DNA from: Candidatus Doudnabacteria bacterium
GTDB taxonomy: Bacteria; Patescibacteriota; Doudnabacteria; UBA920
Assembly (NCBI GenBank): GCA_023245955.1
Contig: JAHFJI010000002.1
Location: 1-51,429 of the forward strand
Direction: 5' to 3'
DNA: 51,429 nt
Each line of letters begins with the position of its first letter. Position 1 is the stretch's first letter. Made by a program: the position numbers and the translations under genes. Of the stretch, positions 39,511 to 44,990 are shown in pieces. The notes under the pieces are model-generated. The model did no database searches. It had not been told where the DNA came from and was given only the letters and a program-made list of their open reading frames with translations.

Positions 39511-39538
39511 GCGTCTGACAATGTATGGTCAATGACGA
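39511..39538. other. degenerate dif-like site at the left prophage junction
   Basis: gcgtctgacaa-TGTATG-gtcaatgacga. The central hexamer and the preceding ACAA are identical to the site at 44963-44990. Confidence 0.45.
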
Positions 39539-39588
39539 CTGTGGATAAGTGTGCGTCGTACAATATTGACGAAGTTAAAAAAAGCCGG

Positions 39589-39753
39589 CTATTTGCCAGA
39601 CTCTTTATTTTGTCGTGTATTTTTTTCTATTTTTTCTAATAAGAATACAGCTTTTATAAAGAAAATAATCAGTATAATAATTAAGAGACAGGGGACATAA
39701 AACCAATAATTAAACAACAATAAATTTTCATGTGCCCTAATTAATAATTCCAT
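39589..39753 (-). CDS. phage-element 54-aa single-TM protein
   Basis: Translated by hand as MELLIRAHENLLLFNYWFYVPCLLIIILIIFFIKAVFLLEKIEKNTRQNKESGK. Its ATG lies 1 nt after the stop of the upstream ORF. Confidence 0.45.
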   Translation of the reverse strand: MELLIRAHENLLLFNYWFYVPCLLIIILIIFFIKAVFLLEKIEKNTRQNKESGK

Positions 39754-39754
39754 A

Positions 39755-40012
39755 TTATTCTACCTTTCCGCCTAACTTTTGAATTAGTGCGTTTTTAATT
39801 CTCTGTATAATTGGTTTGTTTGGGTAACGTATTGCGTAACCCCATGCTTGTAGTATATCCATTACGTCTGACATTGCAAGTACAACTGATTCTTCGCAAC
39901 CACAATTACAATAACCAATTTTATAGCCCATACATCCAGTTTGAGTATCCCAGTCTAAAGACGTAAAAGAAAGCCTCTTTGCACCTTTTGGGTGTGATGT
40001 TGTCATTAACAT
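39755..40012 (-). CDS. phage-element hypothetical protein (Cys-rich CNCGCEES)
   Basis: 85-aa ORF co-directional with and downstream of Rep. No recognised motif. Confidence 0.45.
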   Translation of the reverse strand: MLMTTSHPKGAKRLSFTSLDWDTQTGCMGYKIGYCNCGCEESVVLAMSDVMDILQAWGYAIRYPNKPIIQRIKNALIQKLGGKVE

Positions 40013-40069
40013 ATAAGTACGTTAGGAATAAGAAACCTCAAGGATTTTAATTTTGATAATTCTTTATAT

Positions 40070-40870
40070 TTATATTATTAGCCCATCTGGTAATTTAAAT
40101 CTTGTATATAATATTTTTTCACCTTTGTATGTTTTATACTCCATTTCAGACTTTTCAATATCCGCGGGGAGCGTGTCTAACAATTTTAATATTGCTGACC
40201 TTTGATATATTTCTTTTGGCTGGTACAAACCCTTACTACTAAAAAAGTATTTTTTGTTATCAAGCCGTTTATCACGATCACTTTTAGTTAGATATTTTGC
40301 TATATAATTTGCAAGGTGCTGTAAGTTATTAACGCCGTTGACTTTTGAAAAACCATAACTCCAAATGTCTCTAAAAAACTTTTGTACGTCTCCGGTTATA
40401 AAAGGAAGATTAAAGAATACCGTGTGATAATGAACCGAGCCACCATTGGGTTTTATATTTCCATGAAAGTCTACGTCTTTCTGAAATTCAACAATTGTTA
40501 TGTATTTGAGTGTTGCTTTTTTACTTCCTGTTAATTGGTAGTTAAGACGTTTTAGAAACGCTGTAAATAGGGGATTGGCTGATTTTGGGTCTGGCATACT
40601 ATCCTTAAAAGTAAACGTGGCAAAAATTGGCTGATACGCTCGACCCCGTGCGTCCCTGTACTTATAGGCATTAGCATATACAAGTTGCCGTATACGTCTT
40701 TTAGTACGGAAATTTGATATATTTCTAGAACTGTCTTTAGTCTCGCTATTTTTTCTACCGTAACAGTTGGTTTGAGTAATATTTTTTGATATTCCATATT
40801 CTATAGCATGTTGATACTGCTTTACCTCTAAGACTGGCCCAGCTAGAGTAGCCTTAATCTTGGTAAACAT
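40070..40870 (-). CDS. rolling-circle replication initiator (HUH endonuclease, two-tyrosine type)
   Basis: Motif 1 FATFTF, HUH motif VHYHTVFF and motif 3 NYIAKYLTK (Y-x-x-K-Y, as I recall for phiX174 gpA YVAKYVNK). Confidence 0.7.
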   Translation of the reverse strand: MFTKIKATLAGPVLEVKQYQHAIEYGISKNITQTNCYGRKNSETKDSSRNISNFRTKRRIRQLVYANAYKYRDARGRAYQPIFATFTFKDSMPDPKSANPLFTAFLKRLNYQLTGSKKATLKYITIVEFQKDVDFHGNIKPNGGSVHYHTVFFNLPFITGDVQKFFRDIWSYGFSKVNGVNNLQHLANYIAKYLTKSDRDKRLDNKKYFFSSKGLYQPKEIYQRSAILKLLDTLPADIEKSEMEYKTYKGEKILYTRFKLPDGLII

Positions 40871-40933
40871 ATCTTTTGTTTTCTACGAAAATAAGATTTT
40901 CGTATTATGTGTTATATATATCAAGTATAACTA

Positions 40934-40987
40934 GCGCCCCAGCGGTCGGACGGCGGGCGCGCATGGCGCGCCTCGCCGGTCCGCCCA
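40934..40987. other. isolated GC-rich hairpin in the phage intergenic spacer (candidate origin or packaging signal)
   Basis: gcgccccagcggtcggacggcgggcgcgc-atg-gcgcgcctcgccggtccgcccac. The imperfect stem of about 17 bp spans 40947-40983. An adjacent AT hairpin, tacgaaaat-aag-attttcgta, lies just upstream within 40881-40905. Confidence 0.5.
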
Positions 40988-41242
40988 CTATGACGCTCCC
41001 TTATACAAGGTTATCTTAGGATTTTCGCCAAAGGGGTCTATTTCCACCTCTACAGGAATTAATTTACCTTTGGCTAAGTCTGATAGCATTGCGCCCTTAT
41101 ACCCTAGAGTGGTCATTTCATCGGCACTAGTAAAGAAATCCTTTGTCTGACCTTTTGCTGTAAGCAAGCGAACAAGCGAAAAAGTATTACCTTTTTTACT
41201 GGTCTTTTGTTCTACCGATACAATATTCACGTTATAACTCAT
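40988..41242 (-). CDS. candidate ssDNA-binding protein (gV-like by size and position only)
   Basis: 84 aa. It overlaps the Zot-like gene stop by ATGA and sits between the assembly ATPase and Rep. No motif-level support. Confidence 0.35.
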   Translation of the reverse strand: MSYNVNIVSVEQKTSKKGNTFSLVRLLTAKGQTKDFFTSADEMTTLGYKGAMLSDLAKGKLIPVEVEIDPFGENPKITLYKGAS

Positions 41243-43364: not shown

Positions 43365-43628
43365 TTAGTGCGCAGAGCGCTTTATCCAGCGAAGTGCCAA
43401 TTTTGCTCCAAGGAACACTACCGTAATAGTGACCACGTAAGGCAAAATTGCTTGCAACATTGCAACAGCATTAGTTTGGAAACTAGTTCCAACCGTGTCA
43501 GCAATGTCTGCTAAGTCTTCCGCTGTAGTTGCGTGAGCGGAAAGAGCAACAATGCTCACACCAACAGCACCAGCTACACCGGCTAACTTTGCACCATACC
43601 TTTGAGCGAGTTCTTTAAACTTGTTCAT
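43365..43628 (-). CDS. pVIII-like major coat protein
   Basis: 87 aa. The leader ends ..ALSAHA. The mature part has an acidic N-terminus (TTAEDLADIAD), a hydrophobic core (AILPYVVTITVVFLGA) and a basic C-terminus (KLALRWIKRSAH). Confidence 0.7.
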   Translation of the reverse strand: MNKFKELAQRYGAKLAGVAGAVGVSIVALSAHATTAEDLADIADTVGTSFQTNAVAMLQAILPYVVTITVVFLGAKLALRWIKRSAH

Positions 43629-43632
43629 ATAG

Positions 43633-43773
43633 TTATGACTTTCTATTAATAGTAAATATTACTAAGCCGACCACAAAGCCCAGTAGCAAACCTATTCCCA
43701 TTGACGCGAAAATGGTTTCAATCAGGAGAGACCAATTTCCCACATAGCAAAGTTGTATTGTTTCTGGACACAT
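43633..43773 (-). CDS. gVII/gIX-like hydrophobic micro-protein (46 aa)
   Basis: Translated by hand as MCPETIQLCYVGNWSLLIETIFASMGIGLLLGFVVGLVIFTINRKS. Its stop lies 4 nt before the coat gene ATG. Confidence 0.45.
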   Translation of the reverse strand: MCPETIQLCYVGNWSLLIETIFASMGIGLLLGFVVGLVIFTINRKS

Positions 43774-43778
43774 AGTAA

Positions 43779-43883
43779 TTAATGAAATTGATTAACTATC
43801 CACTTAATACCAGCACCAATTAACACGCAAATTAGTGTAGTAATAGTAAAACTAGTAAATAGTGTAAATAAAGCTGTTTCCAT
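43779..43883 (-). CDS. gVII/gIX-like hydrophobic micro-protein (34 aa)
   Basis: METALFTLFTSFTITTLICVLIGAGIKWIVNQFH. Its ATG overlaps the stop of the 306-aa gene as TAATG. The ORF-track 68-aa frame was trimmed to this start. Confidence 0.45.
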   Translation of the reverse strand: METALFTLFTSFTITTLICVLIGAGIKWIVNQFH

Positions 43884-44803
43884 TATCGTCGTACTAATGA
43901 TTTTCCTATGGAGTAAGCAGAAAGAAATAACAGGGTGCTTACGGCAAATACTAATATTTGATAAAAAGTGTTTATAAAATCCCAACCATAATCTGTAATG
44001 TTGTAGTTATAATTGTCTCCGTCTTTGACGGCTGTAAGTATCGGGCTGTCAGGGGGTGGAGGAGGGGGAGGCGAACCTGCTACAGTGAACTGGTCAATCC
44101 CAAAATATTGTAATTGGGTAAAGTCATCTGCTGTTCTATGAAAAGTAAGTACAAGAGTGTCATAACTACCCGAGTCAAAGCCTGTAAAATCTGTAATAGC
44201 AAAGTTATTTACACCGTCTTGCAAGTTATAATTATGACAAGCTGAACTGACACACACATCTACCGTGTCATATCCATAACCTGTAAGATATGGCAAATCT
44301 GGTATCTCAAAAGAAACAGACTCATACGGTTCACTATAAGAACTTGTTAAATTATTAACAATAAAATCTTGTACAGTAAACTCATCGCTAAAATATTGCA
44401 AGCCAGCACAGTTACCACCATCATCTGAATAACTTGTTAAAAACCTATATGTCTTACCGTCACCATCACCATAACCATCATTGCCAACAAAGTTATCTAT
44501 AGTGTTGATATCCGAGTAATTATATGAGCCTGATTCAGAATCATTAAGAACAGTAAAAATAGCATTATCTGTAACGTTTAATATTTCTCTTGTACTTTGA
44601 ACAGTACCACCACCAGAACAAGCACCATGAGTGCCATCTTCATCAAAAGAAATTGTGAGAGGCTGTATTTCATTAATTTGACCGTCTGTCCAGCCTCCAT
44701 TAGGTGAGAAACTAACATTTGAAAGCTCTGCACGGGCAAAACGCAAGGGGAGTGCCAATGACACAAATGCTAAAGCTATAATTATAATTTTACTCTTAGT
44801 CAT
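43883..44803 (-). CDS. second secreted, C-terminally anchored virion or adsorption protein candidate
   Basis: Signal peptide MTKSKIIIIALAFVSLALPLRFARA, an acidic Asp/Gly/Tyr-rich body, a PPPPPPPP linker and the C-terminal TM segment ILVFAVSTLLFLSAYSIG followed by KSLVRR. Confidence 0.5.
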   Translation of the reverse strand: MTKSKIIIIALAFVSLALPLRFARAELSNVSFSPNGGWTDGQINEIQPLTISFDEDGTHGACSGGGTVQSTREILNVTDNAIFTVLNDSESGSYNYSDINTIDNFVGNDGYGDGDGKTYRFLTSYSDDGGNCAGLQYFSDEFTVQDFIVNNLTSSYSEPYESVSFEIPDLPYLTGYGYDTVDVCVSSACHNYNLQDGVNNFAITDFTGFDSGSYDTLVLTFHRTADDFTQLQYFGIDQFTVAGSPPPPPPPDSPILTAVKDGDNYNYNITDYGWDFINTFYQILVFAVSTLLFLSAYSIGKSLVRR

Positions 44804-44898
44804 TGTTATTTTTTACTTTTGCCCCATGACGTAGAGCGATAAAGGCTCGAGCAAATATCGAGTTACTTAACCACACCATGAGGCAGTAATAAAAAAGA

Positions 44899-44951
44899 GC
44901 TTAGCCACTTAAGGCCAAACCCTAGGGGGAATGGTATTTAAGTAACTAAGC
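44899..44951. other. hairpin in the phage non-coding region next to the att site
   Basis: gcttagccacttaa (44899-44912) pairs with ttaagtaactaagc (44938-44951) at 12 of 14 positions. Confidence 0.5.
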
Positions 44952-44962
44952 CCATACTAGCA

Positions 44963-44990
44963 TAGTCGCACAATGTATGTTGTACGACTA
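44963..44990. other. dif-like 28-bp recombination site (11-6-11)
   Basis: tagtcgcacaa-TGTATG-ttgtacgacta. The arms are inverted repeats at 10 of 11 positions. CGCACAATGTATG resembles E. coli dif CGCATAATGTATA as I recall it. Confidence 0.5.

Follow-up and report, generated by a model that had tools for sequence, protein, structure and literature searches.

An inovirus-like prophage in a Doudnabacteria-like chromosome, probably integrated at a dif-type site

We analyzed a 51,429-nucleotide (nt) stretch of DNA from a Candidatus Doudnabacteria bacterium (contig JAHFJI010000002.1, assembly GCA_023245955.1), referred to here as the window. Positions 39511-44990 of the window almost certainly hold an inovirus-type prophage in the chromosome of a bacterium of the Candidate Phyla Radiation (CPR). 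Our fuller reading, to which we assign a probability of roughly 80%, is that this ~5.45-kb element is the complete prophage of a filamentous single-stranded DNA (ssDNA) phage (order Tubulavirales, inovirus-like) that integrated into a Doudnabacteria-like CPR chromosome by the Xer/dif route. All 11 of its open reading frames (ORFs) are on the minus strand, and the prophage interior is 35.8% GC, compared with 41.8% for the remainder of the window.

The gene set is of the complete inovirus type and has an Ff-like order. The 234-amino-acid (aa) protein encoded at 41239-41943 (minus strand, like all of the phage genes described below) is a pI/Zot-type assembly ATPase. It matched Zot (PF05707) with 35.8 bits against a gathering cutoff of 20.3, and PHROG 197 (Zot-like) with an E value of 9.6e-16. 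Its Walker A (GKLGVGKS) and Walker B (VYFDEAH) motifs are both invariant across 30 homologues. A pI-like ATPase (Zot, FtsK-HerA superfamily) is the sole conserved marker of inoviruses according to Roux et al. 2019 (PMC6813254). The 87-aa protein encoded at 43365-43628 is a pVIII-type major coat protein. It matched PHROG 1646 ("major coat protein") with an E value of 3.3e-5, and scored under the threshold for Pfam Phage_coatGP8 (16.6 bits; threshold, 24.6). A signal peptide ending in AHA is followed by an acidic N terminus, a hydrophobic core, and a basic C terminus, with hydrophobic segments at residues 12-33 and 53-82. The 266-aa protein encoded at 40070-40870 is a rolling-circle replication initiator (Rep), with 56.2 bits to PF23343 (REP_ORF2-G2P; cutoff, 27.8) and E values of 1e-15 to 2e-15 to PHROG 3419 and PHROG 3584 (rolling-circle initiator). 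It has a histidine-hydrophobic-histidine (HUH) motif, HYHTVFF, and a two-tyrosine motif, YIAKYLTK.

Much of this had been proposed in a first-pass annotation made by reading the sequence without database searches, and most of it held up. The 11 minus-strand ORFs are all present with the coordinates that ORF calls give, and the motifs that it listed (FATFTF and the four above) were each found in the translations. The ATPase and Rep both exceed Pfam gathering scores, and the pVIII layout read by eye is seen in the 87-aa protein, together with its coat family match. The annotation also reported no integrase, secretin, or lysis genes, and nothing of these kinds was found at E <= 1 in Pfam or PHROGs for the 11 ORFs. 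Its description of tight packing was right for most junctions, which are 1- to 5-nt gaps or 1- to 4-nt overlaps, but there are three wider gaps, in which putative regulatory or origin elements lie: one of 89 nt follows the coat gene, and Rep has one of 117 nt on its upstream side and one of 57 nt on its downstream side.

Both ends of the element carry a 28-bp site with the architecture of dif, the canonical layout of which is 11-6-11 (PMC5357621). The left junction site, on the Rep side (39511-39538, plus strand), is GCGTCTGACAA-TGTATG-GTCAATGACGA, consisting of a host-derived arm, the shared 6-bp center, and a degenerate phage-derived arm. The right junction site (44963-44990, plus strand) is TAGTCGCACAA-TGTATG-TTGTACGACTA. 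It is a complete dif-like site, with a phage-derived left arm, a host-derived right arm, and arms that are 10/11 inverted repeats. The two 28-mers form a direct repeat at the boundaries that had been drawn for the element in the first-pass annotation. The pattern GTCNNNNAATGTATS occurs at just these two places in 51 kb, with 0.05 occurrences expected, and 1 of 100 shuffled sequences reached two matches. DNA to the left of the left site aligns with intergenic DNA of a relative with an empty site (contig L018, see below), and DNA to the right of the right site aligns closely with the host right flank of another relative (L022).

Several features point to the identity of the site. Identity to Escherichia coli dif (GGTGCGCATAATGTATATTATGTTAAAT; PMC3025954) was 15-19/28 across the sites that we compared, against a random mean of 7.6 (P(>=18) = 5e-5), and in the copy of the L023 contig 17/19 core positions are as in E. 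coli dif. In every locus compared, gene orientation switches from plus to minus, and so converges, exactly at the site. In four distinct loci (the window, L018/L019, L020, and L002), the maximum of the local cumulative GC skew is 1.6-3.7 kb away from the site; in L023, the distance is ~5 kb. The consensus of the sites is nnGTCG[C/T]A[C/T]AA-TGTAT[G/C]-TT[G/A]nnCGACnn. From these sequence features, we infer that the 28-bp site is probably the dif site of the host chromosome.

Related prophages, with pI proteins 72-77% identical to that of the window, were located by exact-protein look-ups in other CPR contigs (L002, L003/L004, L022, and L023/L024). All four occupy the same host locus. Upstream of it are genes for L27, a methyltransferase, ArfC, and in some cases an aminotransferase; the pilin-fusion, M23, and GltX genes, which are convergent, lie downstream. 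Viewed in the phage frame, each has a complete site upstream of its structural genes and, after its Rep module, a degenerate arm, the same center, and a good arm. The two flanking sites share their center in each case (TGTATG in the window; TGTATC or TGTATG in the relatives). Two other relatives have no prophage and a single site at the syntenic spot. In L018/L019, in which CTP synthase is 80% identical to that of the window host, this site is GTGTCGTACAA-TGTATG-TTATACGACTA. In L020 (a 1.21-Mb contig, GCA_964474825.1), it lies at ~309.6 kb and is GCGTCGCACAA-TGTATG-TTGTGCGACTT, with arms that are 9/9 symmetric. The first-pass annotation would have been contradicted by the same block, without flanking repeats, at a syntenic position in all relatives. 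Instead, some sites are empty and others are occupied, the latter in both orientations and with diverged occupants, so the block is not fixed.

We found 33 pI family members among 5.8 billion proteins, one of them named Ca. Paceibacterota. A scan of GTDB genomes with the Zot profile returned only two loci, in metagenome-assembled genomes (MAGs) of Ca. Paceibacterota and Ca. Doudnabacteria, from a lineage whose breadth is poorly sampled. The nearest isolates by tblastn with pI were Thermus, Ralstonia, and Pseudomonas inoviruses, at 23-28% identity, and the best relative found in IMG/VR had a pI that was 39% identical. A separate observation concerns a more distant relative (L025; pI 60% identical), which is integrated beside rpsI and not at the ArfC locus. 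The perfect palindrome at its border (L025 1082-1107) is a different one, with a spacer of 6 bp (AAAGCTATGT-AGAAAT-ACATAGCTTT), and may be the dif equivalent of that host.

The window prophage is inverted relative to those in L002, L003, L022, and L023. Its Rep end faces ArfC, whereas the structural end does so in the relatives, and the same host right-flank DNA abuts the structural end in the window and the Rep end in L022. When the relatives are viewed in the phage frame, the order is Rep, degenerate arm, TGTAT(G/C), TTnnnCGAC, structural genes. In the window phage, it is Rep, TCGTCATTGAC, CATACA, TTGTGCGACTA, structural genes, which is the same layout with the 6-bp center reversed. We propose that the center sets the orientation of integration and that the window prophage is inverted because its center is inverted relative to those of its relatives. 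The arms are nearly palindromic; therefore, by tyrosine-recombinase logic, reversing the asymmetric center would reverse the orientation of integration. Center reversal would account for all of the junctions observed.

No recombinase family was matched at E <= 1 in Pfam or PHROGs by any of the 11 ORFs, and the gene tables of the related prophages (L002, L003, L022, and L023) contain no recombinase. Because no ORF of the phage and no gene in its relatives matches a recombinase family, we propose that host Xer is used, and integration at a dif-like site would explain the missing integrase. The phage would integrate as an integrative mobile element that exploits Xer (IMEX), with the host Xer tyrosine recombinase recombining the phage attachment site (attP) with dif. 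The attP site, as we reconstructed it from the two junctions, would have one good arm, an identical center, and one degenerate arm. This resembles the attP sites of TLCphi and the gonococcal genetic island (GGI), in which one good arm and the center are kept and the other arm is divergent (PMC5357621; PMC4246890), more closely than it resembles the folded double site of CTXphi.

A broader proposal is tentative, and we would put it at somewhat less than even odds. It holds that dif in Doudnabacteria-like CPR is unusually symmetric, with 9-bp perfect inverted arms around TGTATG/TGTATC, and that a CPR-specific inovirus lineage with a soluble pI and a phiX174-type origin exploits this site as an IMEX, the first to be described outside the Proteobacteria as far as we have found. 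The symmetric arms would suggest a single Xer recombinase, and flipping the 6-bp center of attP would by itself reverse the orientation of integration.

Rolling-circle replication of the phage would start in the 117-nt gap before Rep, which contains a hairpin followed by an invariant block. The block, ACTTGATATATATAACAC (40909-40926, minus strand), has an identical copy in seven related loci. We predict that it is the viral-strand origin, ACTTG/ATATATATAACAC (the slash marks the predicted nick). It is identical at 16/18 positions to the phiX174 origin, ACTTG/ATATTAATAACAC (phiX174 rep_origin is annotated at 4306). The YIAKYLTK motif of Rep presumably corresponds in kind to the active site of phiX174 gpA, which we take it to resemble. 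The phiX174-like block, together with the two-tyrosine motif, predicts a nick between 40922 and 40921 on the minus strand. Directly 5' of the origin motif is a GC-rich hairpin (40941-40989, minus strand; dG, -26 kcal/mol; z, -3.8), and relatives have hairpins of other sequence at the equivalent place (z, -2.6 to -5.4). This hairpin is a candidate complementary-strand origin, packaging signal, or terminator. In the proposed mechanism, the two-tyrosine HUH Rep would nick the phiX174-like origin (ACTTG/ATAT...) beside the conserved hairpin, and the ssDNA would be coated by a protein with an oligonucleotide/oligosaccharide-binding (OB) fold. The 84-aa protein encoded at 40988-41242 is predicted to have this fold. 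Its AlphaFold2 model, built on a three-sequence alignment, is a five-strand barrel with helices (predicted local distance difference test [pLDDT] score, 85; predicted template modeling [pTM] score, 0.72), and on this model it is a candidate gene V-like ssDNA-binding protein.

A transmembrane (TM) anchor in pI is a feature of model inoviruses that lies outside the published detection criteria. The highest 19-residue Kyte-Doolittle (KD) mean of the window pI is 0.62 (family median, 0.51), whereas segment 254-272 of M13 pI reaches 1.31. We judged this by comparing hydropathy maxima, because a fixed threshold of KD >= 1.6 missed the M13 pI positive control. By this measure, there is no TM-like segment in the window pI or in 29/30 aligned relatives. 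Assembly and extrusion would then be driven by a pI/Zot ATPase without a membrane anchor of its own, plus small membrane proteins. As a speculation, the membrane link for pI may come from the adjacent 85-aa protein with two hydrophobic segments. As a CPR bacterium, the host presumably has no outer membrane, in which case a secretin would not be needed, and this would fit the missing secretin gene.

Several results weigh against parts of this reading. No Xer recombinase gene is present within the 51-kb window, so the enzyme is assumed. The placement of the terminus is based on local windows of about +/-10 kb and not on whole-genome skew. A second, partial dif-like element, GCGTCGTACAA-TATTGA-CGAAGTTAAAA (39553-39580, plus strand), lies 14 nt inside the left junction, with a consensus-quality arm and a nonmatching center; it may be a relic of an ancestral attP orientation or of an earlier integration. 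The best Foldseek matches of the 84-aa model (PrgE, bacterial and mitochondrial single-stranded DNA-binding proteins, and phage DUF669) are weak (E >= 2e-3), and no gVp match was among the structural matches. A sequence-profile search of the same protein against the PDB gave only repeat-protein artifacts (designer PPR proteins), with 0 stretches passing. The lack of a TM segment in pI was judged by simple hydropathy. The host-derived arm of the left site (GTCTGACAA) is 2 positions off the consensus arm, which may mean that excision of the prophage is no longer possible. The predicted attP junction, ACAATGTATGGTCAATGACGAC, had 0 matches in JGI metagenome contigs and IMG/VR, and exact look-ups with the 306-aa and 85-aa proteins led to contigs of the integrated form and to no others. 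All contigs recovered for this phage that extend to an end of the element are of the integrated form, in at least three independent assemblies or samples, and we found no attP-bearing circular form for the window phage or its close relatives. A circular relative does exist (L028, MWWK01001135.1), in which a 127-nt terminal overlap gives a genome of 5,383 nt. Its pI and Rep are 44% and 40% identical to those of the window and it has the same origin motif, but no recognizable copy of the dif motif. Another contig (L006/L008; 5,843 nt, "Paceibacterota") has no terminal overlap and no recognizable dif-like site, and is uninformative for attP.

The imperfect left arm, the failure to find a circular form or an attP junction, and the recovery of integrated forms alone would all be expected of a locked or decaying remnant that no longer excises or makes virions. 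We consider this unlikely, although it is the alternative that we take most seriously. None of the 11 ORFs is disrupted, they correspond one for one to the genes of the relatives, the origin motif is exact, and identical proteins recur in several samples. Furthermore, prophages of the CTXphi type make phage without excising, by rolling-circle replication from the chromosome (PMC4246890). Therefore, a failure to excise does not imply inactivity.

The missing xer gene also bears on a second alternative, in which the 28-bp site is not the chromosomal dif but a conserved attB for an unrecognized phage recombinase or accessory protein, with host Xer uninvolved. One candidate would be the 85-aa cysteine-containing protein, a conserved neighbor of the att region to which no function can be assigned. 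However, the phage proteins without an assigned role are 34-85 aa long, or are secreted or membrane proteins; they are below the size of known tyrosine and serine recombinases, and no phage protein matches a recombinase profile. Also against this alternative are the exact 11-6-11 layout, the identity to E. coli dif of up to 19/28, and the single site of the prophage-free relatives, which lies where the genes converge in orientation. We regard it as improbable, and integration by host Xer at dif as the better account.

The first-pass annotation had left open whether the element is an integrated filamentous phage or a satellite of one. The first option stands and the second does not, because coat, pI, minor-coat-like, Rep, and OB-fold genes are all present. 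Reps of this type do swap among plasmids, microviruses, and inoviruses, and the pI is without its usual membrane segment, both of which could suit a satellite or a plasmid-like rolling-circle element rather than an autonomous filamentous phage. However, satellites such as TLCphi do not have morphogenesis genes (PMC4246890), whereas this element encodes a coat protein, a pI ATPase, proteins in the pIII, pVI, pVII, and pIX positions, and an OB-fold protein, which makes a satellite very improbable. Finally, the contig is metagenome assembled and there are breaks within the prophage in other assemblies (one contig, of 16,365 nt, stops just past the coat gene), but we dismiss an assembly or binning chimera that joined a phage from another organism to this host, because the Rep-side junction was assembled independently in ERZ27296333 and ERZ27280176, the structural-side junction was assembled independently in ERZ27297344 and ERZ27296333, and four related prophages are at the same host locus in other CPR contigs.

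The remaining phage genes are described here from the right att site toward the left. The first is a 306-aa secreted protein (43883-44803) with a signal-like N terminus by hydropathy, a poly-proline linker, and a C-terminal hydrophobic anchor. This is a pIII-like build, and the protein is a candidate adsorption protein or cargo. Its slot is variable: the product encoded there has 209 aa in L002 and 81 aa in L003, and in L023/L024 (L023 5780-7234; L024 419-1873) it is a 484-aa YadA_head (adhesin-head) protein. The differing contents suggest that the first gene after the att site is a slot for exchangeable adsorption or cargo modules. Two single-TM proteins follow, with one hydrophobic segment each by hydropathy. 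One is a 34-aa protein (43779-43883 from its ATG, which shares 1 nt with the preceding stop codon), pVII/pIX-like by position, with 34-aa ORFs called at the same place in L003, L023, and L032. The other is a 46-aa protein (43633-43773), pIX/pVII-like by position, with a 47-aa counterpart at the same place in L002 and L003. In this region (~43630-43780 of the window), a 2,383-nt contig of the same strain (ENA ERZ27296333) ends just after the 34-aa ORF, close to where the 16,365-nt contig ends, which points to strain variation or a repeat.

Beyond the coat gene, the pIII position is occupied by a 353-aa secreted protein (42205-43266) with an N-terminal signal-like segment by hydropathy. We took the ATG at 43266 as its start; the automatic ORF call runs to a GTG at 43275, and the 353-aa length was also called in an independent assembly. 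The protein had no family match in Pfam or PHROGs. An 85-aa protein with two hydrophobic segments is in the pVI position (41946-42203), ends 2 nt before the pI start codon, and is kept at the same place in L002, L022, and L023. On the other side of Rep, the 85-aa cysteine-containing protein (39755-40012; GYKIGYCxCGC) lies 3' of Rep and adjoins the att region. It is kept in L022, L003, L023, and L002 and had no match in Pfam or PHROGs; it is possibly a regulator or a recombination accessory factor. The last ORF (39589-39753) encodes a 54-aa protein with one strong hydrophobic segment (residues 10-44), and same-size counterparts are at the same position in L023 and L024. A consensus scan alone marked a terminator-like hairpin with a T-run at the end of the phage transcription unit (39585-39599, minus strand) and another in the interval that separates the first phage gene from the right att site (44896-44923, minus strand). 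The latter could insulate the phage from host read-through. A promoter scan gave 24 matches, with 24.1 expected from shuffles.

The genes that flank the prophage are chromosomal housekeeping genes (DnaB, RecR, CysS, two Adk-like, Map, L1, RF2, FtsE/X, L9, CTP synthase, and L27), together with genes for a methyltransferase, an ArfC-like protein, pilin-fusion proteins, an M23 peptidase, and GltX. The 120 best matches of CTP synthase are 70-99% identical, and all of those with a named source are from Ca. Doudnabacteria, the Patescibacteria group, or Ca. Gottesmanbacteria, and the best named relative is from Ca. Doudnabacteria, at 75%. The CPR/Patescibacteria host suggested by the first-pass annotation is thus supported by these sequence comparisons, with flanks and CTP synthase relatives in agreement and the Zot relatives also in Ca. 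Paceibacterota and Ca. Doudnabacteria MAGs.

Some other features of the host DNA were observed. The proteins encoded at 45331-46206 and 47007-48059 have a sub-threshold T4SS_pilin domain (PF18895; ~20 bits, against 26.6), which in one of them is joined to an SLT lytic transglycosylase domain. Because the L023/L024 host flank also encodes a T4SS_pilin-domain protein, these window genes are probably host and not phage genes. The ArfC-like ORF at 38820-39323 (PF27542) is 167 aa from a GTG start, overlapping the methyltransferase gene, and independent calls give 145 aa. Short perfect palindromes with related words occur between genes at 39362-39392, 2492-2516, 22315-22340, and ~45195-45225, including both flanks of the prophage (TATGGGTCCTATATG/CATATAGGACCCATA; AGGACTTAT..ATAAGTCCT; CTATAAGTC..GACTTATAA; GGTCTTATAAGTCC). 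They look like a dispersed host repeat family of the repetitive extragenic palindrome (REP) or miniature inverted-repeat transposable element (MITE) kind. Near 20 kb, the orientation of the genes and the GC skew both turn from minus to plus, and tandem adenylate-kinase-family ORFs of 192 and 215 aa are at 20262-21491. Positions 1-1000 are 54% GC, compared with ~40% elsewhere, and contain a 295-aa ORF (47-934) without a Pfam match; this may be foreign DNA or a distinct gene class. The protein encoded at 2714-6247 has 1,177 aa and combines a glucose/sorbosone dehydrogenase domain, PKD domains, and four PA14 domains. For a CPR genome, which is small, this surface-type protein is unusually large.

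The closest parallels for the integration route are the Vibrio IMEX phages (VGJphi and TLCphi types) and the gonococcal island, which likewise have no integrase, a 28-bp dif-type site, and two flanking dif-like sites. The window differs in its host, which is a CPR bacterium and not a proteobacterium; in host-site arms that are near-perfect 9-bp inverted repeats; and in having close relatives that integrate either way, following the 6-bp center. In the window, the use of Xer is deduced from sequence. It also differs from CTXphi in having no significant folded double attP: we considered a CTXphi-like folded ssDNA attP and rejected it, since the minus-strand fold of 39480-39600 was no better than those of shuffled sequences (z, -0.70).

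In its genes, the element resembles the Ff phages (M13/f1/fd). It shares with them a gene order in which two tiny membrane proteins precede the coat protein, which is followed by a large secreted protein, one small membrane protein, and pI, as well as a module of Rep and a small DNA-binding protein and a genome of ~5-6 kb. Unlike them, it has no pIV secretin, its pI has no TM segment, its OB-fold gene precedes Rep (it follows Rep in Ff), its Rep and origin are of the phiX174 type and not the gpII type, and it is integrated, whereas Ff phages are purely episomal. The likeness to phiX174 (Microviridae) is in the origin core (ACTTG/ATAT..ATAACAC, 16/18), but the structural genes of the window are all inovirus type, there is no microvirus capsid gene, and the Rep family is PF23343. 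By pI, Thermus phages (Paulinoviridae, e.g., OH3) rank with the closest isolates (26.7% identity across 60% of the query; E, 6e-5), and OH3 has a similar gene order and a genome of similar size (5.7 kb). However, the identity is very low, the OH3 Rep (gene II protein) is different, at ~446 aa, and the host is of another phylum.

To our knowledge, CPR bacteria have very few characterized phages and no genetic tools. However, the first-pass annotation, which held that as far as is known no filamentous phage has been cultivated from the group, overstated the novelty. CPR bacteria are already among the known inovirus hosts: Roux et al. 2019 (Nat Microbiol, PMC6813254) made nine detections in them, one example being a Magasanikbacteria genome, and these include prophages integrated in large contigs. 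Like the window element, those are pI-bearing, short-gene, integrated inovirus-like elements in CPR contigs. In that study, prophage ends were direct repeats of at least 10 bp, "canonical" if in a tRNA gene or next to an integrase; Xer is not mentioned in its main text, nor XerC in its supplementary files (PMC6813254). Filamentous phages that exploit Xer are well known in Proteobacteria (PMC5357621, PMC4246890), and our literature search found no paper linking Xer or dif sites with Patescibacteria/CPR. Inoviruses in CPR are therefore already known. What is new is in the details: a probable dif consensus for CPR and its proposed use, IMEX-type, in either orientation; the predicted phiX-like origin; and a pI that has no TM segment.

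An intact-looking 5.4-kb inovirus with a defined att site, origin, and genes is a candidate for work on viruses linked to their hosts and, in time, for development into a vector. With the dif-like consensus, replication termini could be located in these MAGs, and more elements that exploit Xer could be found there. Furthermore, the two orientations, correlating as they do with the 6-bp center, would be a natural experiment on how the center directs the alignment of sites by a tyrosine recombinase.

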